Of a stretch of 64,000 bases of DNA, positions 1 to 11,108 are shown in pieces (the stretch's first letter is position 1; each line of letters opens with the position of its first letter). The notes beneath the pieces were generated by a model. It saw only the letters and a list, made by a program, of their open reading frames with translations. It searched no databases and was not told where the DNA came from. The position numbers and the translations under genes were made by a program. This DNA comes from Deinococcales bacterium (GTDB lineage: Bacteria > Deinococcota > Deinococci > Deinococcales > JAAFIG01), in NCBI GenBank assembly GCA_031414595.1, contig JANNVX010000014.1, forward strand, positions 48,078-112,077, read 5' to 3'.

Positions 1-966
1 TCAGCTTCAAATGGTGGTGCGGTCTTTATTGGTAGAGATCAGAAAAACGTTTCATTTGAAAATACACGCTTTTTGAACAATACAGCCACCAGCAATGGTG
101 GGGCGTTATTTATTGATATGCAAAGTGCCTTTAATATGACTAAATCAGCATTTACTGGCAATACCAGTAAAAACTCAGGTGGAGCAATCTTTGTTTCCAA
201 CAGCAATAACATCAGCATCGCTGAAACGAATATCTCCGCCAATCAAGCTCAGACCCAAAGTGGTGGTGGTATTTTTGTTGCCAGTACCAGTCAAATGGCT
301 GTACGCAAGAGTCAGATTTTTGGCAATACTGCTACTGAAATGGGTGGTGGAATTTACATTCAACCTCAAGTATTCCAAGGATTATCACCGATTGTCACGA
401 TTGACAGCATAAGTCTGTACCAGAATCGAGCCAAGAACGGGGCGGGAATATACTCGGCTGGAAACCTAACCATTCAAAACAGTACCGTTTCACAAAACAT
501 AGCGTCCAATCAAGGTGGTGCAGTTTTCAGTGGAGAATCTCCTGAATCTCCACTAGCGCCAATTCTCGTTCTAACCAGTTCAACCTTTTACGATAACCAA
601 GCAGGGGATACGAATGCTAACCAAGTTTACTCAAAGCAAAAATTCACAACTCGCTCGAGTCTGTTCTACAACAGCCAAGGCAAGAACTGCAATGCGCCAG
701 AAGTGATTAGCCTTGGCTACAACATCGCTTCGGATGACAGTTGCAAATTGACTGGAAAAGCTGACCAGAACAATACTGACCCCAAACTCGGACTCCTAGC
801 TGACAATGGTGGTGGTCTCTTGACCCATCTGCCAGTGGTTGGTTCACCAGCCATTGATGTCGTGCCACTGAACACCTGTGAAGCTCGAGACAATCGTGGG
901 GTGGTTCGGCCTCAAGGTGCAGCTTGTGATGTTGGGGCAGTTGAGCGCAGTCCAACGGATAAATAA
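1..966 (+). CDS. Polymorphic-membrane-protein-like beta-helix protein with C-terminal choice-of-anchor Q domain (5'-truncated by window edge)
   Basis: Frame open from position 1. Repeated GGA(I/L/V)F/Y motifs; C-terminal DPKLGLLADNGG..THLP..GSPAID..D.RG..RPQG..CDVGAVE motif. Confidence 0.75.
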   Translation, partial: SASNGGAVFIGRDQKNVSFENTRFLNNTATSNGGALFIDMQSAFNMTKSAFTGNTSKNSGGAIFVSNSNNISIAETNISANQAQTQSGGGIFVASTSQMAVRKSQIFGNTATEMGGGIYIQPQVFQGLSPIVTIDSISLYQNRAKNGAGIYSAGNLTIQNSTVSQNIASNQGGAVFSGESPESPLAPILVLTSSTFYDNQAGDTNANQVYSKQKFTTRSSLFYNSQGKNCNAPEVISLGYNIASDDSCKLTGKADQNNTDPKLGLLADNGGGLLTHLPVVGSPAIDVVPLNTCEARDNRGVVRPQGAACDVGAVERSPTDK

Positions 967-1063
967 CTTTACTTTTGCAGTTAAAAGGCGGAAAATGACT
1001 CGAGACTCCTCGAGATTTTGTCGCTACGGCAATGCGTTCTTAACACAACTGGATGGTTAAACC

Positions 1064-1507
1064 ATGCAAGCATTTATTCCCACAAGACCAGCACCCGCTC
1101 CACCAAGAGTATCACTGCTTGGACTAAAAGCCACAACCATTTTAGAGGTTGGTGAAGCAGTCGAAAACGGTTTTGCCACAAGCCTTGTCAAGCGGTTTGC
1201 TTCGCATATCAATGCTTCGTTGCAAGATACACTCAAACTGCTGGATATAAGCAAACGCACTTTTCACCAATACCAACGCCATAAAAAGCCTCTGAGCCGA
1301 AGTGTAAGTATCAATGTGCTTCTCTTAGCCCAAATCACAGAGGCAGCCGAGCAGTATTTTGAAGATAAAACCAATGCCCATGCTTGGCTTGCCACACCTC
1401 GAACTACTTTTGGAGGCACGACACCTCTTCAGTTCAGTCTGCTGCCCAATGGGGCTGAATACGTTAGAGCCGTGTTGAACAAACTCGAGCATGGGGTTGT
1501 TACGTGA
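1064..1507 (+). CDS. Xre/MbcA/ParS-type antitoxin (HTH plus C-terminal toxin-binding domain); no cognate RES toxin visible
   Basis: C-terminal AHAWLATP..TFGGTTPL....NGAEYVRAVLNKLEHGV motif; HTH-like LKLLDISKRTF. Confidence 0.75.
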   Translation: MQAFIPTRPAPAPPRVSLLGLKATTILEVGEAVENGFATSLVKRFASHINASLQDTLKLLDISKRTFHQYQRHKKPLSRSVSINVLLLAQITEAAEQYFEDKTNAHAWLATPRTTFGGTTPLQFSLLPNGAEYVRAVLNKLEHGVVT

Positions 1508-1647
1508 AATTTGTTTCTGCAACGCGTTTTCAAATAGAAGTAAGCTCAACAATGGCAACTCGGGAAGCATGGATGTCCGAGCAACCCTTTTGGAGTGTCA
1601 CAGTATAGCCCTAACGAAAAGTTGGGCTTTACCTGTTGAATCATTGC

Positions 1648-2112
1648 CTAAGCGTCTTCCTCATCTCTAAGCTCTCGAGTGAATATGTTGGATTCGCAAT
1701 CAATTGGATGAAGACCTATGAATTCTGCATAATCAATGTCGTTCTTTTCAAGGTTTTGGTGTTCGTTTTTATGGACTCCATTTAATCCTTCATCCAACAT
1801 CCGAGCCAAATCCTCGACTTTCCCGCCCCGCTCCTTGAGAAGACGACAAAATTCTTGCCTGCCGATTGATTTTACCAAATCATCCCTATCAAAGAGCATC
1901 GCTGCGTATAATCTTGGTTCTGGCATAAAGGTTTTGTCGTGACTTGAGAATGCAATCAGGTCATAGTTAAGGTCACTTCTTTCACGAATCGCCACAAGAC
2001 GCTTCCCGTACAGGTAAAAATGTGTGTTTTTCGGTAACATTGTTGCCATCCTCATGCACTTGTAGAAAAGAACCTTGCAGCACCACCACAACCAAATCCC
2101 AACGACCACCAA
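1648..2112 (-). CDS. Hypothetical protein (true start probably downstream of 2112)
   Basis: 154-codon ORF with no recognised motif. Confidence 0.5.
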   Translation of the reverse strand: MVVVGIWLWWCCKVLFYKCMRMATMLPKNTHFYLYGKRLVAIRERSDLNYDLIAFSSHDKTFMPEPRLYAAMLFDRDDLVKSIGRQEFCRLLKERGGKVEDLARMLDEGLNGVHKNEHQNLEKNDIDYAEFIGLHPIDCESNIFTRELRDEEDA

Positions 2113-2221
2113 TGCTCAAAAATCACGATTATGACTACTCAAGTAGGAAACGATACTATTGAGGTCATGCTGTGATGATTGATTTCAAACCAAAAGTAAA
2201 TCATGAAACCACAAATAATCA

Positions 2222-2611
2222 CTACCTACCACGGTATCCAAAAACAAAAGCTGGAACTGGCTTGCTCATCGTCTCAAAGTCGGCTTTGACCTGTTGCCTA
2301 TGATTGGTCTGACGGGTGCTACCAGTGGGTTGCAATTGGTCTATCCAAAGTTCCAAAGCATCTTCTGGTGAGTCTTCGTAAACCTCGAGTATTTTAGGTT
2401 CGGTCGGTTTGATGCTATCCCAATGGATGTACCGATGTAAGCGTTGTAAATGCTGTTCTGGACTTTGACTCGAGGCAATCAGTCCAAGCATGTGTGATTC
2501 CTCGAGCATGATTGAACCTGCTTCTTCGCTTCTTAGAAGTTGCAGTAATTTACTGGTGTAGTCACGCCAGACTGTGTTGACTTCACGTTTTTGACGGTTT
2601 CTTTGGCTCAT
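2222..2611 (-). CDS. Hypothetical protein
   Basis: ATG at 2611 (MSQRNRQK) preceded by an AAGGAG RBS. Confidence 0.6.
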   Translation of the reverse strand: MSQRNRQKREVNTVWRDYTSKLLQLLRSEEAGSIMLEESHMLGLIASSQSPEQHLQRLHRYIHWDSIKPTEPKILEVYEDSPEDALELWIDQLQPTGSTRQTNHRQQVKADFETMSKPVPAFVFGYRGR

Positions 2612-2664
2612 ATGATTTACTCCTTTTACACATCTTTTGCTTGTAGTTGCTTTTATTTGAGAAA

Positions 2665-3009
2665 TTATCCAAACTTCCTTTGAACCAAACGCCAGCACAA
2701 AGTGACCATCAGACCAGCGAATAGAATCACTGCCCAACTTGGTAATTGCAGAATCACCGCCAAGCTGTATGAGTAAACCCCAGCACAAAAGGTTAAAGAC
2801 CAGACCAATGGAATTTTGGCAAATAATTGTAGAAACGCATCAAGATTATGCCCATAGTGCTTCTCGAGCAAGAATAGGATGATGGCAAAGACCATCAGGC
2901 TCGAGACAAGACAAAGCCCAATTGAGGCATTGACAGTCACGAGTAATCTTGTTGTCAAACCTCCAGCCAGAACTGCAAAAACAAGCAACTCGAGGTGAAC
3001 CCTTTTCAT
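2665..3009 (-). CDS. Small membrane protein, hypothetical
   Basis: About four hydrophobic segments; ATGA overlap with the upstream ORF. Confidence 0.6.
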   Translation of the reverse strand: MKRVHLELLVFAVLAGGLTTRLLVTVNASIGLCLVSSLMVFAIILFLLEKHYGHNLDAFLQLFAKIPLVWSLTFCAGVYSYSLAVILQLPSWAVILFAGLMVTLCWRLVQRKFG

Positions 3010-3359
3010 GGTGTCTCCAAGTTCGCCTTGCCAAAAAACCGAGTATTCATTTGTTCTCGTAACCGATGATTCTCAAGGGTGAGTTTACCAAGTAAGCGCT
3101 CGAGTAGGATTTCTTGGGCTTTTGATCGCTCGAGTTGTTTTTGTAGATTCAAATTCTCGGTCTCGAGTAAACCAGATTGTTGTTCTGAACTAATAAAAGC
3201 ATCATTACCAAAGCGTTCATATAAAGCTCGCCAAGAAAATAAGGTTGAAGCTAGGATTTTATGTTCTCGAGCCACAGCACTAGGTCGTTTGTGTTGTTCA
3301 ATGACTTCCTTGACCATTCGCAACTTAAATTCGGGGGTGTATAACTTTCGGTTTTTCAT
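3006..3359 (-). CDS. IS3-family OrfA-like HTH/leucine-zipper protein without a catalytic OrfB
   Basis: RKLYTPEFKLRMV...SAVAREHKILASTLFSWR motif followed by a coiled coil; ATGA overlaps on both sides. Confidence 0.7.
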   Translation of the reverse strand: MKNRKLYTPEFKLRMVKEVIEQHKRPSAVAREHKILASTLFSWRALYERFGNDAFISSEQQSGLLETENLNLQKQLERSKAQEILLERLLGKLTLENHRLREQMNTRFFGKANLETP

Positions 3360-3826
3360 GGTCTAGTCCTTACATTAAATGTAATCGTGTGAATCACGGT
3401 ATCTTTTGTATCTCGAGGAAGTTCAGTAAGCTCTAATTGATGCTCGTTATTTAGGGTAAAAGCTATGGTGATTCGGCTTTTGGTTAAAGTCCATCCATCA
3501 CTATTTACAGCACTTGATTCAAGAACTTGTAAAAAAGTGGTTAGAGCTTTCTCAAAGGTCGTCATAAATTGGGGGATTGGTGTTCCAAAATCATTAACAG
3601 TAAAACTTTGGCTATCCACTGAAAATTCAATGTGTACAAGTTCTTCCTTGGTGGTTACGCTGGTTGCAAGGTTTAGTTCGCTTGCTTTTCGGGTTTTGCT
3701 TGCTTTATCGAGATAGAACGCCCATGTCACTTGGGTGATCTGAATTCTTGTGCCTAAAAGGTTATAGGTGTGCGCTATATTGAAGGTGCTTTGTACCGCA
3801 CCAAGATAATCAATGGGCTGGTTCAT
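3356..3826 (-). CDS. Hypothetical protein
   Basis: 156-aa ORF translationally coupled (ATGA) to both neighbours. Confidence 0.6.
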   Translation of the reverse strand: MNQPIDYLGAVQSTFNIAHTYNLLGTRIQITQVTWAFYLDKASKTRKASELNLATSVTTKEELVHIEFSVDSQSFTVNDFGTPIPQFMTTFEKALTTFLQVLESSAVNSDGWTLTKSRITIAFTLNNEHQLELTELPRDTKDTVIHTITFNVRTRP

Positions 3827-4542
3827 TCTCGTGTCCCTAAGCCTAACTCGAGACCATCATCCAAAAGATGGTTTTCATGCTCGTTAGTTAAATTTTCCTC
3901 GAGAATAACTTTGCGTTTCATGGGTGGAATCCATTTCTTCCAATGCTCTGGGATTTCTAATCGCATTGGCTTGAGATTTTGAGCAATTAAGAAACCATGC
4001 TCGAGAACCCCAGTCATGTGTAGATACCGAGCATCTTCGACCAAATTCAGTAAATCGAGGGTGGTTTTAGCACTGACCACAAATGGTTCTATTTTTTTGT
4101 TGTCTGGTGGGTAAACTCGCAGCAATACTAATTTCTCAGCTCGGTCTAAACGGAGGACTTTGCCAGCCGCACTCCAGAAGGTATCAGCACCATTCAAATC
4201 AACGGCATTCTCGAGGGGCATGACTCGAGCCAAGGTGAGGTTGGCTAAGCGTTGGTCTTTGAAGGTCTTGCCGTACAACGTGGCTCTCCAAGTACCAGAG
4301 AGTTGGATTGAAGACTGTTCAGGGTGGGTGTTGCGCCACCTCGAGAAAACCCTTGGGTGAACTCGAGCGATGTAAGTACCATTTTTTGGATTGCCAAGTT
4401 GAATGGTGACTCGAGTGTTTTGCTGGTCATCTTGGATGGTGGCATTGGCTTGGATGAAGAAATGGTGGTTATAGTCGGTGTGAATACCTTTTGGCATTGG
4501 CTGTGGTGTGGTTACAAGAGTTTCAAAAACGTCATTTGACAT
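3823..4542 (-). CDS. Hypothetical protein, paralog of 4575..5171
   Basis: AGGAG RBS; shares WSA.G....D....LV..RVYP...PF..SA...H..G.L...LEIP..W..W with the upstream ORF. Confidence 0.7.
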   Translation of the reverse strand: MSNDVFETLVTTPQPMPKGIHTDYNHHFFIQANATIQDDQQNTRVTIQLGNPKNGTYIARVHPRVFSRWRNTHPEQSSIQLSGTWRATLYGKTFKDQRLANLTLARVMPLENAVDLNGADTFWSAAGKVLRLDRAEKLVLLRVYPPDNKKIEPFVVSAKTTLDLLNLVEDARYLHMTGVLEHGFLIAQNLKPMRLEIPEHWKKWIPPMKRKVILEENLTNEHENHLLDDGLELGLGTRE

Positions 4543-4574
4543 GCTATCTCCTATTCACGGGTTTCTTATCGTCT

Positions 4575-5171
4575 TTAGTTGGCTTTCCAGTTGCGCCAAC
4601 GATCAGGAATTTCTAAATCTTGATTGGTTAATACTTCTGCAACAAGCTTTTTGCCACTTAAGTTCCCTATCAAATGGACAAACTCATTTTTTCTTGGCAA
4701 CTCTTGTTCTACTTTCAAACTGGCTGAAATCAAAAATGGCGTGGCTCGAGCTTGCTCAGGGTAAACCCGAATCGTGACCAATCGGTGTATTGGGTCACTT
4801 TTGGTGATTTGTCCAATAGCACTCCATCGCGGCTGGTGGGAATCTTCTCGTTCTAACTCGAGGGGTTCAATACGATGTAGGTGAAGTGGTTCAAACAGCA
4901 CACTATCGTTCAAAGTGCGGAAATGAAGCGTACATAACCACCAACGATGACTTGCTGGGTTGAGCCTTAACACATCTGCACTGGCTTTAACCCGAAGCAT
5001 GGTGCTATCGGAGAGTTGGATGTCCATATTGTTACCGCTCCCTGAATCGTAAATACAAGCCGCCACTCGCATAAAAGCATGGCATCCATCAGGAATAGGA
5101 AAATCAAAAGTGAGTTTTCGTGGGGTAGTGGTCAATGGTCTGCCTCGAGCTTGGATTTTGTGACTGGTCAT
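4575..5171 (-). CDS. Hypothetical protein, paralog of 3823..4542
   Basis: ATG at 5171 with GAGGTG RBS; shared C-terminal motif with the downstream ORF. Confidence 0.7.
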   Translation of the reverse strand: MTSHKIQARGRPLTTTPRKLTFDFPIPDGCHAFMRVAACIYDSGSGNNMDIQLSDSTMLRVKASADVLRLNPASHRWWLCTLHFRTLNDSVLFEPLHLHRIEPLELEREDSHQPRWSAIGQITKSDPIHRLVTIRVYPEQARATPFLISASLKVEQELPRKNEFVHLIGNLSGKKLVAEVLTNQDLEIPDRWRNWKAN

Positions 5172-5313
5172 AAGAAATGCCACCTCTGTACACATCGGAT
5201 CGTGTTTGTTACAAAAGGTGGTGGTGTTAAACGAGATTGATTGTCTTGAACTGCCAACATGAGTTGTAAGCTCAAGTGCTGACCCTAATTGCTTGGGGCA
5301 TTTACATTATAAC

Positions 5314-5329
5314 ACCGTATATATACGGT
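5314..5329. promoter_or_regulatory. Perfect 16-bp palindrome, candidate Xre operator between divergent transcription units
   Basis: ACCGTATATATACGGT, 37 bp upstream of the xre start codon. Confidence 0.55.
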
Positions 5330-5366
5330 TCTGCTAGTCAAAGTCAACCTGTAGCCTTCGCAAACG

Positions 5367-5594
5367 ATGCCTCGCTTTGCGGTAGACCCAGAGATAATAC
5401 GTGTTCGCATTCGTCAATTACGACTCGAACAGGGTTTAACCCAAGATGAAGTAGCAGCCCGAAGTGGAATCAACGAAAAGCACTATCAAGACCTCGAGAC
5501 GGGAAGGAAAGCCTTTAATCCTACTCTCGAGACCCTCAATGCTTTTGCTTTGACCTTTGAAGTGGAACTGGCTGTCCTTCTAAAATCGGAGTAA
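5367..5594 (+). CDS. Xre-family HTH transcriptional regulator
   Basis: IRQLRLEQGLTQDEVAARSGI...YQDLETG...NPTLETL motif. Confidence 0.9.
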   Translation: MPRFAVDPEIIRVRIRQLRLEQGLTQDEVAARSGINEKHYQDLETGRKAFNPTLETLNAFALTFEVELAVLLKSE

Positions 5595-5761
5595 AACCGT
5601 AGATTCCTGACACGTTATTCGGAAATTTAACGTGAAATACACGGGAGTTTGAAAATCAGAGTTGGTCATTGTAGACCAAACAAAAACAGTATGCTAAGTT
5701 ATCCGTCAGTGACAGACTATTATAAATGTCAACGAAACCTGAATCTTGAGGTAATTAGGAT

Positions 5762-6721
5762 GTGTTTCATATGATTGAAACTGCCAAAAACCCACACTGG
5801 GCAATCCACCCTCAAATCCAAAATGGTGAGTTGTTTGAATCTTGGATTGTGCGGTTGAGTGCCGAAAATGGCTTTCGCCTGCGCGAAGTGATACAGCAAT
5901 TAGAACTCAAAAATGTCTTTTGTTCTAAAAACAATGTTGAGATCAAAGCCGTAAGAAAATTGTCGGATGCAACTGGGATACTTCAATATCGAATCCTCGA
6001 ATCCCATCTTGGGTGGCTTCAAAATCACTCTGATCTTGCCTATGCAAAAACATTTACCCTTTGGGGGCGTAGCCCATCGGACACGATACAGCATTTTAAG
6101 TTTTGCCCAGACTGTTTTGCTAATCAAGACAAGCCACACATACTGCTTGACTGGGCATTTGAAATCACTCAGTTCTGCACGGTACATCAACGACCTTTAC
6201 TCGAGCGTTGTCCAAAATGCCGCGAGCCACTTCAGTTTAGTTTGCTTTTCAACAAAACAATACAACCCGAAATCTGCTCTAATTGCAGCACAAAAATGAA
6301 AATCCATGCTCGGAAACACAGCATTGATTTCAAATTTGGTCTCGAGCTACAAAGACAAATCTTGAGCCTCCGAAAACATGACCAAGTATCACCAAAACAA
6401 TCACGAATTATCCCAGCAAAAACGTTTTTATCAATTGTTGAGCGGATATTTTATCGCTTTACCAATTTACCCAACCAGCAAACCTTCTCTAAATTGACTG
6501 ATCTCTCAGTTATGTTGCTGGATGATCGTTTTTCGCAAGCGTACCGAAGAATAAACGCCCTGACCATTTGTGGCTGGCTTTTAGCCGACCCAATAGTACG
6601 AATTATTACTCTGCGCCAATTCACGCAAAAGTATGTTGAATACTCGACGGCTATTCAAATTATTTCTGTTCTGAATTATGCACAAGCGACATTGCAACCA
6701 CGTAATGGAACTTACCAATGA
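5762..6721 (+). CDS. tniQ: TniQ (Tn7 TnsD/TniQ family target-selection protein); ATG at 5771 is a possible start
   Basis: N-terminal HP...GELFESWIVRLSAENG; FCPDC...W.....FCTVH...LLERCPKC...CSNC zinc motifs; short (about 319 aa); ATGA overlap with cas5. Confidence 0.9.
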   Translation: MFHMIETAKNPHWAIHPQIQNGELFESWIVRLSAENGFRLREVIQQLELKNVFCSKNNVEIKAVRKLSDATGILQYRILESHLGWLQNHSDLAYAKTFTLWGRSPSDTIQHFKFCPDCFANQDKPHILLDWAFEITQFCTVHQRPLLERCPKCREPLQFSLLFNKTIQPEICSNCSTKMKIHARKHSIDFKFGLELQRQILSLRKHDQVSPKQSRIIPAKTFLSIVERIFYRFTNLPNQQTFSKLTDLSVMLLDDRFSQAYRRINALTICGWLLADPIVRIITLRQFTQKYVEYSTAIQIISVLNYAQATLQPRNGTYQ

Positions 6722-7452
6722 GCTTATTTGCACTCGAGGTTTGGGGCGATTACGCCTGTTTCACACGTCCTGAAACAAAAGTTGAAAGACTTAGTTACCC
6801 TGTGATGACTCCAAAAATTGCTCGAGCAATTTTTGGAGCGATCTACACCCAGTTTTCTGGGGGTGAAACACCTCACACAACTTTTTTCTGGCAAGTCAGG
6901 CGAATCGAAATCCTCAATCCAATTGTGTTTATTTCGTTCTCACACAATGAAGTCAAAGGGAGAGCAAGCACTTACAACATTTTGCGCTCAGTTCATCAGC
7001 CCGACGCACTTCAACCGCTCATGGCAGATGGCAATGATGATTCCAGCAAAGAGACTGGGCGCACCCAACGCCAATCAATGATTTTGCGCGAGGTGCGTTA
7101 TCGGATATTCGCTGAACCAGTGCTGTACAATCCAAACCAAAGCAATCTGAAGCAAATCACCCACGAATTTGCTCGACGTGCAGCCAAAGGCAAGTGTTTC
7201 CATCAGCCTTTTTTGGGATGCCGTGAATACATAGCATTTTTCCAGCCAGTTCCGCCCACATTTGGCGTTGGCGCACCGATTTTTGAAGATATTGGTTGGA
7301 TGATCTACGATACGTTTGATCTATCACAGCCAAGCTCAATCACCATTACACCAAGCATTAGTATCTTCAGGGCGACGATTCAAAACGGTGTTCTCGAGAT
7401 ACCGCCGTATGATAGCAACGAGGTACGCAAACTAGGACTGGGAGTGATTTGA
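6718..7452 (+). CDS. cas5c: Type I-C CRISPR-associated protein Cas5c (Cas5d)
   Basis: LEVWGDYACFTRPETKVERLSYPVMTP..AR.IF.AI; TQRQSMILREVRY; GKCFHQPFLGCRE. Confidence 0.95.
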   Translation: MSLFALEVWGDYACFTRPETKVERLSYPVMTPKIARAIFGAIYTQFSGGETPHTTFFWQVRRIEILNPIVFISFSHNEVKGRASTYNILRSVHQPDALQPLMADGNDDSSKETGRTQRQSMILREVRYRIFAEPVLYNPNQSNLKQITHEFARRAAKGKCFHQPFLGCREYIAFFQPVPPTFGVGAPIFEDIGWMIYDTFDLSQPSSITITPSISIFRATIQNGVLEIPPYDSNEVRKLGLGVI

Positions 7453-9266
7453 TGCTCGAGGCTCTGATCGAATATGCTCACCGAAAACAATTGGTTCTCG
7501 AGCCTGGTTTTGCTGGCAGGCGTATTCATTGGTTAATAAATCTTGACTCTAAAGGACAGGTTCAATCCGTTTCTTTTGCAGATGAATCCAAGCGACGAGC
7601 GAAGTTGTTTCCATGCTGTCCAGACCTGCAACAGCCCCAACTGATCAGGCTGCCACATGTACTTAAACAGCTTGGAATACTATCAACACGAGCAGCCCAC
7701 TTTTTAATGGATTCATGTTGTCGTGTGGTGCTTTATCCAGATAACGATCAGTTGGAACAACATAAGACTTTTCTAAACCTAATCCAACTAGCAAGCCAAG
7801 AAGTTAGGATATTACGACCAGTTGCAAAAATGCTTTCAAAGCAAAAGGAAATTGGTCGAGTACATCAAGCCCTCATTCAATTGAAAGCCACAAAAACCGA
7901 CAAAGTATCGTTTTCGGTGGATGGAGTGGTCATACTTGAGGATACAACGTGGCATGATTGGTGGCGAAGATTTTATATAACCACAAGCTCAAAGCAAAAT
8001 TCAGATCGTATGATCAGTCTGGTTTCAGGAGAAGTTATTTCGCCTGCCAGAACACATCCAGCGCTTAAATCCTTGGTCGAAAAAAAAGTAACTTTTGGAG
8101 CGGCAGTAGTGGCTGTGCATAAAACTGCCTTTACCTCATATGGGCTAAAACAAGCCGAACACGCCGCCATGTCAGGAGCATCTGCCGCTGCCTATCATGC
8201 AGCTCTGGAAGATTTATTGAGACAAACTAGGATGGTTCATGGTACGAAAGCGGTGTATTGGTACAACCAAGAAATTCCACTACAATCCGACCCACTGGCG
8301 CTGATGTTGCGCGATGAACGCATAGATAACATCAACTACCGAAAACAGCTTGAGGATATTCTTTCACAAGCTCGAAAAGATGATTCTCGAGATGTTGCTT
8401 GCCATATTGCTGTGTTGCGTGAAAATGAAAATCGGGTCAGGATTTCATTGTACAAAACGCTGCGATTGAGTGAAGTGGCGGCTGGACTTATTAAATGGCT
8501 CGAGGATACTTCAATTGATGGTTTGGCAGGTACTGGTTTCGTAGTTGATCTACCCAGCGAATTTGCTGGTATGTTTCGTCAACGAGTTGGGGGAAAAAGC
8601 GATAAGGCACTTGACTTTCAACCACTACTGATTGTGTTGTACCAGCAGATGCTCAACCCCACTCTACCCATTGCGATGGCTCTGGTTGATTATTCACTTA
8701 AATCGGTCATTACCAGCTTTGTAAAAGGCAAATTTCAGGCAGCATTTGCAACCAAGGCAGATTTACCATTGCGACAAAATTTGGTGATTTACATGGGTAT
8801 TTTGAAAGCATTTTGCCGTCACTCAGGTGATCGAGACCTATTGCAACAACTGAATCCTAATCATCCTAATTCACACTATCAAACAGGTCGGCTCACTGCG
8901 ATGCTCGAGCGTATTGATGGGTTGAATAATCCTCCACATGTTGAACTCAAAAACCAAAGGTTGTTTTTGCAAATTATGACGACACCGAACAATATCCTGC
9001 AAGAAAAAATGGCTTCCAGTCAACGAAAGCTCAAGCGACTTGAAAGAACTCGACGATGGTTCAGCCTATACTTACAAAAAGAAATGAATACGATTTGGGA
9101 GAATCTTGATGCTAAGGTTCGGAGTAATAGCTCAGTAAAACGCCAATGCTTATTCCTATTGGGTTACTTTCAACAAACCATTTCTCAATTGATTGAACCT
9201 GTGCAAAACGATGATTTTTACAATTTGGAGTCGAGAACCTTTAAGGAGCAACATGAAACCGATTGA
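7449..9266 (+). CDS. cas8c: Type I-C CRISPR large subunit Cas8c (Csd1)
   Basis: MLEALIEYA start; AFTSYGLKQ motif; C-terminal Y..GRL.A.LE and FLLGYF.Q motifs; lies between cas5c and cas7c. Confidence 0.9.
   Translation: MMLEALIEYAHRKQLVLEPGFAGRRIHWLINLDSKGQVQSVSFADESKRRAKLFPCCPDLQQPQLIRLPHVLKQLGILSTRAAHFLMDSCCRVVLYPDNDQLEQHKTFLNLIQLASQEVRILRPVAKMLSKQKEIGRVHQALIQLKATKTDKVSFSVDGVVILEDTTWHDWWRRFYITTSSKQNSDRMISLVSGEVISPARTHPALKSLVEKKVTFGAAVVAVHKTAFTSYGLKQAEHAAMSGASAAAYHAALEDLLRQTRMVHGTKAVYWYNQEIPLQSDPLALMLRDERIDNINYRKQLEDILSQARKDDSRDVACHIAVLRENENRVRISLYKTLRLSEVAAGLIKWLEDTSIDGLAGTGFVVDLPSEFAGMFRQRVGGKSDKALDFQPLLIVLYQQMLNPTLPIAMALVDYSLKSVITSFVKGKFQAAFATKADLPLRQNLVIYMGILKAFCRHSGDRDLLQQLNPNHPNSHYQTGRLTAMLERIDGLNNPPHVELKNQRLFLQIMTTPNNILQEKMASSQRKLKRLERTRRWFSLYLQKEMNTIWENLDAKVRSNSSVKRQCLFLLGYFQQTISQLIEPVQNDDFYNLESRTFKEQHETD
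8841..9266 (+). CDS. cas11c: Predicted Cas11c small subunit from an internal in-frame start within cas8c
   Basis: AGGTGAT RBS-like sequence followed by an in-frame TTG at 8841, directly before the QQLNPNHPNSHYQTGRL segment. Confidence 0.5.
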   Translation: MQQLNPNHPNSHYQTGRLTAMLERIDGLNNPPHVELKNQRLFLQIMTTPNNILQEKMASSQRKLKRLERTRRWFSLYLQKEMNTIWENLDAKVRSNSSVKRQCLFLLGYFQQTISQLIEPVQNDDFYNLESRTFKEQHETD

Positions 9267-10218
9267 AAATCGCTACGAATTTCTACTCATTTTTGATTGC
9301 GAAAATGGCAATCCCAATGGTGATCCCGACGCAGAAAACCTTCCAAGAATAGACTCCCAAGACGGTCATGGATTGGTCTCTCCAGAATCAATCAAACGAA
9401 AGATTCGTGACCGTATTGCCCTGAATGGTATAGAAATCTTTATCCAACACCAAACCAATCTCAATCGTGCGATTTTTGCGGCGCGTGAACAGAGTAATAC
9501 CTTAAAAGACAAATCCACCAAGATAACATTACAAAACGCCGCTGCAATTATGTGTAAACGATTTTATGATGTTCGGACTTTCGGTGGGGTAATGACTACA
9601 GGTGTCAATTCAGGTCAATTGACTGGACCTGTGCAGATTACATTAGCTCGCAGTGTTGACCCAGTTCATATCATGGATTGGGGAATTACTAGAGTGGCTG
9701 TTGCCGAAACTGTCCAAGGAGCAAAAACCCTGGCTGACTACGAACAATGGGAATCCGAACAAAATGCTTCAGATTTAAGAACTATGGGACGGAAAAGCCT
9801 GATTCCATATGGATTATTCGTAGCCAAAGGCTGCATCAGTGCGTTTGATGCGGAAAGAACAGGGTTTTCAGAAGCTGACCTCGAATTGCTCTGCGAAAGC
9901 ATGTTAGACATGTTTGAACACAGTCGCAGTGCCAGTCGTGGTTTGATGACCACAAGGCGCTTGGTAATTTTTAAGCATATAGGATCATCCAAAGACCCCA
10001 AAGTGCGCCTCAAACAAGCTAAACTAGGGCGTATTCCAGCACAAAATTTGCTCGAGTTAGGCAGAATTGTTCGCATTTCTCGCGTCAATAAAGATGCTTT
10101 TCCTCGAGCCTATCACGATTACGACGTGGTTGTGGATACCAGTGCATTACCAGAAACCATTGAAGTGCTGGATTTAGATTTGTGGGATGAAGAAAAGTTT
10201 CGCTCGGCTTGGGTTTAA
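9253..10218 (+). CDS. cas7c: Type I-C CRISPR backbone subunit Cas7c (Csd2)
   Basis: [55 protein letters not shown] RBS before the ATG at 9253. Confidence 0.95.
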   Translation: [321 protein letters not shown]

Positions 10219-10390
10219 GCGAACCCTTAGTGGCACTAAAATCACCTATAGTTCGCGGAAACCAAATTTCGTCTATGACGTGATTCTTCTGTGCGATATT
10301 GAGTAGTGATCAAAAAATTAATGTTGAATTATTGGGTTCGCAGAATGTATTCCTTTTTGACTTTGTACTATGAAAAGATATACATTTACA
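10219..10390 (+). promoter_or_regulatory. CRISPR leader
   Basis: AT-rich non-coding segment between cas7c and the first repeat, with a GCGAAC...GTTCGC inverted motif and a second GGTTCGC, as often seen in type I leaders. Confidence 0.65.
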
Positions 10391-10568
10391 GTCTCAATGG
10401 CATCTAGCCGTCGAGACGCTTGAAACCAAACCCGACGAAAGGATGCACATTACGATAATCCGTCTCATGGGCATCTAGCCGTCGAGACACTTGAAACATT
10501 GCCATCTAAAGTCCAATCACATACATTGGCATGTCTCTATAGCTTTTAGACATTGCGATGCTCGAGAT
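10391..10568 (+). CRISPR. Mini CRISPR array: three 36-bp repeats (third degenerate) and two 35-bp spacers
   Basis: R1 10391-10426 GTCTCAATGGCATCTAGCCGTCGAGACGCTTGAAAC; R2 10462-10497 (33/36); R3 10533-10568 (24/36). 71-bp period, GTCTC...GAGAC hairpin, TTGAAAC end. Confidence 0.9.
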
Positions 10569-10673
10569 TTGGAACTTTACAAAAAAAGTCTTTGCAGTAG
10601 CGACAATAAACCGTTAGCACCACTACATTCTCTTAAAACCTTGAATAAACATAGGACATGAGCTAGGATTACA

Positions 10674-10731
10674 GCCTCAACGGTACTTAGCCATCGAGAC
10701 GCTTGAAACTAACCAATTGACCTATATGCCC
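10674..10731 (+). CRISPR. Separated atypical repeat plus tRNA-targeting (homing) spacer
   Basis: Repeat 10674-10709 (30/36 to R1), then TAACCAATTGACCTATATGCCC, which matches the reverse complement of 11009-11030 at 18/22. Confidence 0.88.
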
Positions 10732-10813
10732 GAATTTATTTTTTCCAAAGCCTCTTGTTCCAGATATGCGGAGGTCAAAGCCAAAAGGTTTGCTTGAAAG
10801 GAGTATTGGGATC

Positions 10814-10961
10814 ACTGACACGGTAAACGATAAGAAATGATATAGAATTTAACTCGAGTTCGTTAAACACAATGTTTATTTAGGAAAGTTCAATCAGTGC
10901 CACGGTAAACGATATTGACATTCATAAAAATAATTACTGACAAAGTAAACGATAATTCACA
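10814..10961 (-). mobile_element. Tn7-like transposon end with three TnsB-binding repeats and terminal TGT/ACA
   Basis: ACTGACACGGTAAACGATAA (10814-10833), AGTGCCACGGTAAACGATAT (10896-10915), ACTGACAAAGTAAACGATAA (10936-10955), then TTCACA ending at 10961. Confidence 0.85.
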
Positions 10962-10966
10962 CCTAT

Positions 10967-10995
10967 TTGCCAAATGTGCATTTTACGGTTAATCT
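10967..10995 (+). promoter_or_regulatory. Sigma70-type promoter of the tRNA gene
   Basis: TTGCCA (10967-10972), 17 bp, TAATCT (10990-10995); 13 bp upstream of the tRNA. Confidence 0.6.
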
Positions 10996-11008
10996 AGGGG
11001 TCGTGCGA

Positions 11009-11085
11009 GGGTCTATAGCTCAATCGGTTAGAGCGGAGGTCTCATAAACCTTAGGTTCGGGGTTCAAGTCCCCGTGGACCCACCA
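11009..11085 (+). tRNA. tRNA with CAT anticodon (probably Ile2, possibly elongator Met; not initiator)
   Basis: Acceptor stem GGGTCTA/TGGACCC plus ACCA; D arm GCTC..GAGC; anticodon arm GAGGT-CTCATAA-ACCTT; T loop TTCAAGT. Confidence 0.95.
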
Positions 11086-11108
11086 AATTATGAAGTTTGG
11101 ATTTAATA

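Follow-up and report, generated by a model that had tools for sequence, protein, structure and literature searches.

The window analyzed here, a stretch of 64,000 nt from the 4.49-Mb genome of a Deinococcales bacterium, carries the targeting end of what is, with a probability of about 85%, a complete and precisely bounded type I-C CRISPR (clusters of regularly interspaced short palindromic repeats)-associated Tn7-like transposon (CAST) of 48,819 bp, for which a mechanism can be proposed by analogy. The gene content, both ends, the target-site duplication, a related empty site, the match between spacer and target, and the retention of the same geometry in relatives were established by the analysis; we infer that transposition by the element would depend on Cascade and CRISPR RNA (crRNA). 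The element begins with tnsAB-tnsC at its left end, continues through cargo, and closes at the right end with a helix-turn-helix (HTH) gene, tniQ-cas5c-cas8c-cas7c, an array, and an atypical repeat, beyond which lies a tRNA-Met gene. Position numbers without a prefix refer to the window, which corresponds to G000:C14:48078-112077. G000 denotes the source genome, and C14, C17, C18, C82, and C101 are contigs of it; G126, G129, G130, and G138 are other genomes that were compared, and L-numbers designate extracted loci.

The targeting genes form a single operon in which neighboring genes overlap. The original prediction had described it in this way from the window itself, and the description stood: its open reading frames (ORFs) are all present in the ORF list, the ATGA at 6718-6721 that joins tniQ to cas5c is real, and the TniQ family profile PF06527 matches the predicted gene with a score of 60.2 bits against a cut-off of 27. 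Four Cys/His pairs are invariant in TniQ across the 16 family members aligned. Cas5c matches solved I-C Cas5 chains with E values of 1e-32 to 7e-26, and the subtype-specific PADLOC models assign Cas5c, Cas8c, and Cas7c all to type I-C. The overlap between cas5c and cas8c spans 7449-7454, and cas7c probably starts not at 9193 but at the ATG at 9253, which is preceded by AAGGAG. The predicted absence of the nuclease and adaptation genes held for cas3 and cas1, which were sought by family searches of the whole genome: the Cas1 family matched only on C18 and C82 and not on C14, and the Cas3 core exceeded its cut-off only on C18, with none of the five matches on C14. For cas2 and cas4 the claim stood in part, as neither was found among the scanned ORFs of the element, a set that left out a 3374-aa ORF, ORFs shorter than 90 aa in the 40 kb upstream, and several small ORFs of the window, and no genome-wide search was made for them. 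Cas6 was likewise absent among the scanned ORFs, so crRNA processing would fall to Cas5c. TniQ and a Cascade with no Cas3 or Cas1 family match on the contig thus lie together between transposon ends, the arrangement that marks a type I CAST, and tniQ, about 40 kb from tnsC, overlaps cas5c instead.

The transposition genes lie upstream of the window on the same contig, where the original prediction had suggested that tnsA, tnsB, tnsC, and a second end with the same repeats should be sought; all of these were found there. Beside the inverted left end, a single ORF of 821 aa encodes a natural TnsA-TnsB fusion, which is matched by the Pfam families TnsA_N, rve, and Mu-transpos_C, all weakly. The fused form also occurs in four other protein clusters (35-61% identical), and six residues are invariant in all five fusion sequences. 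By our own reading of the alignment, D71, E85, and K87 would make up the PD-ExK motif of TnsA, and D434, D532, and E568 the DDE triad of TnsB. As a single sequence the fusion found no match among solved structures, and a profile was needed; the profile built from the five sequences matched I-F3 TnsAB and TnsB chains at 8e-10 and 1e-6. In the AlphaFold model, which has a mean pLDDT (predicted local distance difference test) of 51 and a catalytic core below 50, residues 14-140 of the N-terminal domain are confident. The top Foldseek matches of the model were TnsB of Tn7 and of the CAST ShCAST and TnsA of Tn7, the TnsA part being matched to Tn7 TnsA (1t0f and 1f1z) with a probability of 1.00. The adjacent tnsC encodes a short TniB-type ATPase of 275 aa (TniB 2.5e-31, VchTnsC 3e-7, ShTnsC 6e-4). 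Together, these genes provide the Tn7-family core of a DDE transposase (TnsB) and an AAA+ protein (TnsC), as well as a TnsA endonuclease.

Both ends of the element are resolved to the base. The left terminus is TGTGAATT and the right terminus is AATTCACA, with 23 of the first 30 bases common to both, and each inverted end holds three to four repeats. The left-end copies start at C14:10291, 10322, and 10354 in inverted orientation and together span C14:10291-10371. The right-end sites are spaced 82 and 40 bp from start to start, compared with 83 and 40 bp in the relative L019. In G129, a genome of the same genus, the site is empty: a left flank that is 92% identical runs directly into a single CCTAT, tRNA-Met, and a NUDIX gene. 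Both flanks of the element align to this empty site with an overlap of 5 bp, so the insertion is shown to be discrete, to carry a 5-bp duplication, and to lie 47 bp upstream of the tRNA. Right after the CCTAT of the window, positions 10967-10995 read TTGCCA, 17 nt, and TAATCT ahead of the tRNA gene; this may be a tRNA promoter spared by the insertion, although a promoter scan did not list it.

The array is short, and the homing spacer stands behind the separate atypical repeat. The original prediction had placed a Tn7-type end and then a tRNA gene after the array and had named that tRNA as the target of the last spacer. Three end repeats followed by tRNA-Met(CAT) were indeed found, and the spacer behind the atypical repeat does match tRNA-Met. 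Compared with the reverse complement of nucleotides 1-22 of tRNA-Met, the homing spacer agrees at 18 of its first 22 positions and differs at 6, 12, 18, and 19. In type I crRNA within Cascade, every sixth base is flipped out and unpaired. When every sixth position is masked, the homing spacer scores 18/19 on tRNA-Met, the best non-self site in the 4.49-Mb genome, and the next best site scores 16/19; the chance of at least 18/19 at one fixed place is 2e-10. The right end's last base is 69 bp away from position 1 of the homing protospacer, whose PAM (protospacer-adjacent motif)-distal side faces that end. The element therefore combines a short array with an atypical repeat whose spacer is directed at the DNA beside the right end. 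The hairpins of R1 and R2 are stable (-14.9 and -12.3 kcal/mol; z = -3.8 and -3.0), each with a 9-nt 3' tail, and that of the atypical repeat is weak (-4.9 kcal/mol, z = -0.28). The next repeat-like hairpin begins 40 nt past the atypical repeat. A guide ended by a T-run after spacer position 22 was considered and found no support, since a terminator scan of 10200-11100 returned none. Spacer S1 had no match in plasmid or phage collections, and S1 and S2 gave nothing beyond chance-level rows against the own genome at a threshold of at least 24/35. A look-up of RNA records covering the array region listed none. The coordinates of all features are collected in Table 1.

Table 1 Features of the element and its attachment site, in window coordinates unless a contig is named
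Feature	Position	Strand	Evidence or remark
Whole transposon	G000:C14:10220-59038	+	48,819 bp (computed)
Right-hand 10,961 bp of transposon	1..10961	+	Left end 37.9 kb left of window start
Xre-type HTH gene, possible regulator	5367..5594	+	HTH_3 3.1e-11 (Pfam)
tniQ, short form, 319 aa (316 aa from later start)	5762..6721	+	PF06527 4.5e-16; PADLOC TniQ 3.9e-17
cas5c	6718..7452	+	Cas5d PF09704 1.2e-20; PADLOC Cas5c 9.4e-42
cas8c (csd1)	7449..9266	+	Csd1/Cas8c PF09709 1.8e-57; PADLOC Cas8c 4.9e-56
cas7c (csd2)	9253..10218	+	Cas7 PF05107 3e-80; PADLOC Cas7c 4.4e-83 (ORF 9193-10218)
Mini CRISPR array, 36-nt repeats, 35-nt spacers	10391..10568	+	R1, S1, R2, S2, R3
Array units	R1 10391-10426, S1 10427-10461, R2 10462-10497, S2 10498-10532, R3 10533-10568	+	R3 degenerate, 24/36
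Atypical repeat	10674..10709	+	6 substitutions vs R1; 105-bp gap after array
Homing spacer	10710..10749	+	Positions 1-22 complementary to tRNA-Met; 3' boundary uncertain
Right end	10811..10961	+	Three ~18-bp TnsB-type sites 10816-10833, 10898-10915, 10938-10955; terminal AATTCACA
Target-site duplication CCTAT, 5 bp	10962..10966	.	Other copy C14:10215-10219
tRNA-Met(CAT), attachment site, intact	11009..11085	+	ARAGORN; insertion 47 bp upstream
Protospacer and PAM position	11009..11033	-	Protospacer 11030 down to 11009 = tRNA-Met nt 22 to 1; PAM 11031-11033 = CTC (non-target strand)

TniQ proteins of this kind are rare. A word-index search returned 3 proteins, and an exhaustive search among 1.84 billion representatives returned 12 with E < 1e-20, one of them identical to the G138 protein. 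Among 364 genomes of the phylum, TniQ relatives were present in 3 further genomes, all of the same family. Contig collections from genomes and metagenomes yielded no close TniQ relatives when scanned, but a 7-sequence TniQ alignment used as query recovered 3 loci in genome contigs. All three contain tniQ-cas5c-cas8c-cas7c and an array, and all come from metagenome-assembled genomes of Deinococcota/Deinococcales, in keeping with the taxon given in the original prediction. In G126 (L020, C161, 836-3688), cas5c and cas8c are fused into one ORF of 950 aa with no cas3 beside it. In L018, a similar small ORF precedes tniQ, HTH-like by eye only.

The homing geometry was examined in five elements, namely those of the window, G126, G138, and G130 and a relic on C17, the alignments of G126, G138, and the relic being read partly by eye. 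In four of the five, a spacer-like match stands beside an atypical repeat and its target lies 66-69 bp from the right end, and the four targets are all different. In G126, the spacer targets an ABC permease gene at its 3' end, immediately beyond the right end of the element, with the PAM TTC and position 1 at 67 bp. In G138, the last 20 nt of tRNA-Leu are matched at 17 of 20 positions (mismatches 6, 9, and 18) with the PAM TTC at 66 bp, as judged by eye; here an atypical repeat in inverted orientation near the right end forms the homing unit, which places this guide on the opposite strand. The relic (L003, G000:C17:41001-47000, ~2420-3544) is a second related element of the source genome, about 1.1 kb long; what remains of it is a repeat-bearing left end, a truncated tnsA of 194 aa (TnsA_N 1.9e-6), two or three I-C-like repeats, and a right end. 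The relic is the only other place in G000 where the repeat of the element was found. It abuts clpP, and its spacer matches the start of clpP at 68 bp with 15 of 17 positions in the stretch from 7 to 23. The fifth element, in G130, is complete across two contigs and sits at the 3' end of tRNA-Arg with a TTGGT duplication on both sides. In addition, contigs from two other metagenome studies join a related right end to the same tRNA-Met (X5 record 11, X8 record 17, and X10 record 5). In the longest of these, X5, which is ~93% identical, both the flank and what follows downstream of the tRNA are different, suggesting more than one insertion event or host.

Some further observations were made on these relatives. 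In G130 (L018, G130:C136, 443-367 and 95-19), a complete tRNA-Arg(CCT) lies inside the right end, 270 bp from the chromosomal tRNA-Arg, and the internal and chromosomal copies show compensatory differences. The same element has an IS5-type transposase between cas7c and the array. In G138 (L046, C421, ~2470-2560), ~2 bp separate a right end from the left end that directly follows it upstream of tnsAB, a junction that could reflect insertion in tandem, a circle formed on excision, or a join made in assembly.

By analogy with the characterized type I-F3, I-B, and I-D CASTs, the following mechanism can be proposed. Array transcripts would be processed by Cas5c, and Cas5c, Cas8c, and Cas7c would assemble on the crRNA into a Cascade lacking Cas3. 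The crRNA from the atypical repeat would pair with nucleotides 1-22 of the tRNA-Met gene. TniQ, in its short form and translated together with the Cas proteins, would mark the PAM-distal end of the R-loop and recruit the short TniB-type TnsC. TnsC in turn would recruit the TnsA-TnsB fusion bound to the repeats of both ends. Cuts on both strands would then release the element, which would insert with its right end leading, at a distance of ~66-69 bp from the protospacer's PAM-proximal edge, and generate a 5-bp duplication. Its spread to other DNA may be served by the two ordinary spacers.

Several observations weigh against reading the locus as a type I-C CAST that homes by this guide. The complementarity of the window spacer stops at position 22, which is the tRNA boundary, and the PAM position reads CTC and not TTC. 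TTC is the canonical PAM of type I-C; among the homing targets it is present in G126 and G138, and the position is not clear in the relic. Moreover, no in-register terminal repeat follows the homing spacer, which leaves the 3' end of the guide uncertain. Spacer positions 1-6 match at only 2 of 6 in G126 and 1 of 6 in the relic, which in a canonical type I seed would prevent binding. In G130, neither strand yielded a homing spacer. On the transposase side, the Pfam matches of the TnsA and TnsB parts are all below the curated cut-offs, including TnsA_N at 0.003, and the structure model is poor, so the Foldseek result counts mainly for the N-terminal TnsA part.

The short complementarity and the CTC would also be expected of an element that is a I-C CAST by descent and has since become an immobile fossil with a decayed guide and target; the clearly decayed relative on C17 of the same genome and the insertion sequence behind cas7 in G130 point the same way. 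However, the six core ORFs are all open and of full length, the residues proposed to be catalytic have been conserved, neither the ends nor the 5-bp duplication show a flaw, and the site is empty in a genome of the same genus. The contigs of other studies that bridge a related right end to the same tRNA, with a differing flank in the longest, are also at odds with a fossil, and the mismatches at 6, 12, and 18 fall at positions that a type I Cascade ignores. Taken together, we consider a fossil improbable, although it fares better than the other alternatives.

The fusion family also bears on how the target is chosen. TnsA-TnsB fusions of this family occur in 18 of the 364 genomes of the phylum. 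Among four members outside the family of the window element, Cas8c is absent in two and on another contig in two. In G008, the one of these four examined for gene order, tnsAB-tnsC is followed by TniQ proteins of 458 and 496 aa. In G138 and G130, tnsAB-tnsC is directly followed by other genes. That relatives which are not CASTs use these larger TniQ/TnsD-like proteins next to tnsC, without linked cas genes, would agree with a TniQ that selects the tRNA target alone, binding DNA in the manner of TnsD, with the Cas genes and array as cargo or in another role. In the element, however, tniQ is parted from tnsC and shares an overlap with cas5c. The 16 short TniQs form a clade of their own with support of 100/99 in a 19-protein tree that has only 3 outgroups and carries a long-branch warning. 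Four elements have four different targets at a common distance, each matched by a spacer of the element concerned, and a fixed DNA-binding protein does not explain such a choice. Target selection by TniQ alone is thus very unlikely.

The host has a canonical I-C system of its own on C18 (L024, G000:C18:191001-201110), with the order cas3-cas5c-cas8c-cas7c-cas4-cas1-cas2. The Cas proteins of the element are only 39% (Cas7), 32% (Cas5), and 23% (Cas8) identical to those of the host, and the repeat of the C18 array differs from that of the element; recent copying of the host I-C system therefore does not account for the module. That the Cas3-less module is a DNA-binding regulator, or a defense module borrowing the Cas3 of this host locus, rather than a guide for transposition, is the least probable reading of all, even though Altae-Tran et al. 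2023 (PMC10910872) suggest, in the part of the article available, that a Cas3-less I-C system with a Cas8-Cas5 fusion may bind DNA, as the low identity and distinct repeats speak against borrowing, a guide against the own tRNA gene would be lethal with Cas3, and the module lies inside a transposon, by the right end, in every relative seen. A I-C CAST thus remains the preferred reading, and one genome harbors both a canonical I-C defense locus and a self-targeting I-C guide on a transposon.

It is plausible that the capture of a I-C Cascade occurred independently of the published I-C CASTs. A fuller joint reading is more tentative, and we would put it at slightly less than even odds. According to it, a I-C Cascade was acquired, separately from the published I-C CASTs, by a Tn7-like lineage of Deinococcota whose TnsA and TnsB are fused and whose TnsC is short, and the shortened TniQ of this lineage moved into the cas operon. 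Its stand-alone guides would need only ~20-22 nt of PAM-proximal pairing, ending at the tRNA boundary, and integration would occur 66-69 bp from the PAM edge, closer than in any characterized type I CAST. If this were true, TniQ would have to dock, without Cas6, on the terminal Cas7 or the crRNA 3' end, which would represent a new effector-to-transposase interface in a six-gene programmable integrase.

The cargo identified among the scanned ORFs includes a GreA-like protein, an RNase H, a beta-lactamase-fold protein, a subtilase, a secretin, an Xre-MbcA/ParS-type antitoxin, and an IS3-type HTH. A GTPase-associated conflict system consisting of GAP1-N1, DO-GTPase1, DO-GTPase2, and GASH occupies C14:15650-22326 (L001 7650-14326); it is adjoined by a SIR2-EAD1 protein, with a STAND-TPR protein alongside. 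Near the subtilase and secretin lies the 3374-aa ORF, along with a second ORF that bears Chlam_PMP repeats (L002 3-10127; window 1-966). Elsewhere in the genome, only two repeats follow the C18 I-C locus before unrelated sequence, ~0.4 kb before the contig end. On C101 (L025, G000:C101:1-5153), a long CRISPR array precedes cas6 and the genes for a 330-aa TniB-type ATPase and a TniQ of 410 aa, with no transposase between them. The repeat of this array is that of the array at the end of C82, next to a cas1. This locus may be another association of transposon and CRISPR system or an insertion into a CRISPR locus.

RNA-guided transposons of this I-C type have until now only been glimpsed in fragments. 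In the literature searched, the phrase 'I-C CAST' is confined to the studies of Rybarski et al. 2021 (bioRxiv 10.1101/2021.08.16.456562) and Hu et al. 2024 (PMC11300857), and no functional study of I-C CASTs was found, although the supplements of cited papers may hold related sequences; Benler et al. 2021 do not mention I-C. The available text of Rybarski et al. describes nine metagenomic I-C CASTs with TniQ beside TnsABC, which agrees with the view in the original prediction that such elements are known computationally only. It reports no array, homing spacer, tRNA, or other attachment site as detected in them, and the accessible part of Hu et al. likewise describes putative I-C CASTs without recognizable arrays. 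Similar to the elements of Rybarski et al., as far as that text describes them, the window element is Tn7-like with TniQ, Cas5, Cas7, and Cas8c and without Cas3 or Cas1/2. However, in a comparison by description only, the window element differs in having tniQ in the cas operon, TnsA fused to TnsB, and a short TnsC of the TniB type, and it possesses an array, a homing guide, both ends, a duplication, and an attachment site. It is a genuine type I-C CAST, it is complete, and the searched literature does not describe its architecture.

Two other systems invite comparison. Altae-Tran et al. 2023 (PMC10910872), in the part available, propose a Cas3-less type I-C system with a Cas8-Cas5 fusion as a DNA binder. 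The 950-aa Cas5-Cas8c fusion of G126 resembles it in having no cas3 beside it but lies between tniQ and cas7c inside a Tn7-like right end, whereas no link to a transposon is made in that text. Membership in CasMu, prompted by the Mu-transpos_C domain, was considered and rejected, as CasMu-I, in the description available, is of type I-A with a MuA paralog and no TniQ.

Type I-C was the one CAST subtype without an array, guide, attachment site, or functional test in the searched literature, and the locus now supplies what such a test would require: six genes with open frames, the two ends at ~170 bp each, and the repeat in its typical and atypical forms. It also supplies a natural target with its PAM, an expected insertion distance, and an empty site for comparison. 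With four targets and the same geometry, the small family allows one to ask how a Cas6-less Cascade recruits TniQ and how short a guide suffices.

Comparing the element with the type I-F3 CASTs (Tn6677/VchCAST), it becomes apparent that the two share their overall layout, with the transposase at the left, cargo, and tniQ-cas-array at the right, often with an Xre-type regulator. They likewise share an atypical repeat with a homing spacer, right-end-proximal insertion, and a 5-bp duplication, and by sequence, I-F3 TnsC and TnsB are the nearest solved relatives of those of the window element. However, its Cascade is of type I-C, its TniQ is shorter (319 aa), and it has no Cas6. In I-F3 systems, insertion occurs ~80 bp from the PAM-proximal edge (a 32-bp protospacer plus ~49 bp), whereas it lies at 66-69 bp here. 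This distance is similar to that of the type V-K CASTs, which insert 60-66 bp from the PAM. The V-K systems (ShCAST) also have a short TnsC of ~275 aa and use tRNA genes as attachment sites, and in G138 the homing guide is separate from the array and near the right end, as in V-K. While V-K CASTs rely on a single Cas12k with a tracrRNA (trans-activating crRNA) and have no TnsA, the window element combines a Cascade of several subunits with a TnsA domain whose motif looks intact.

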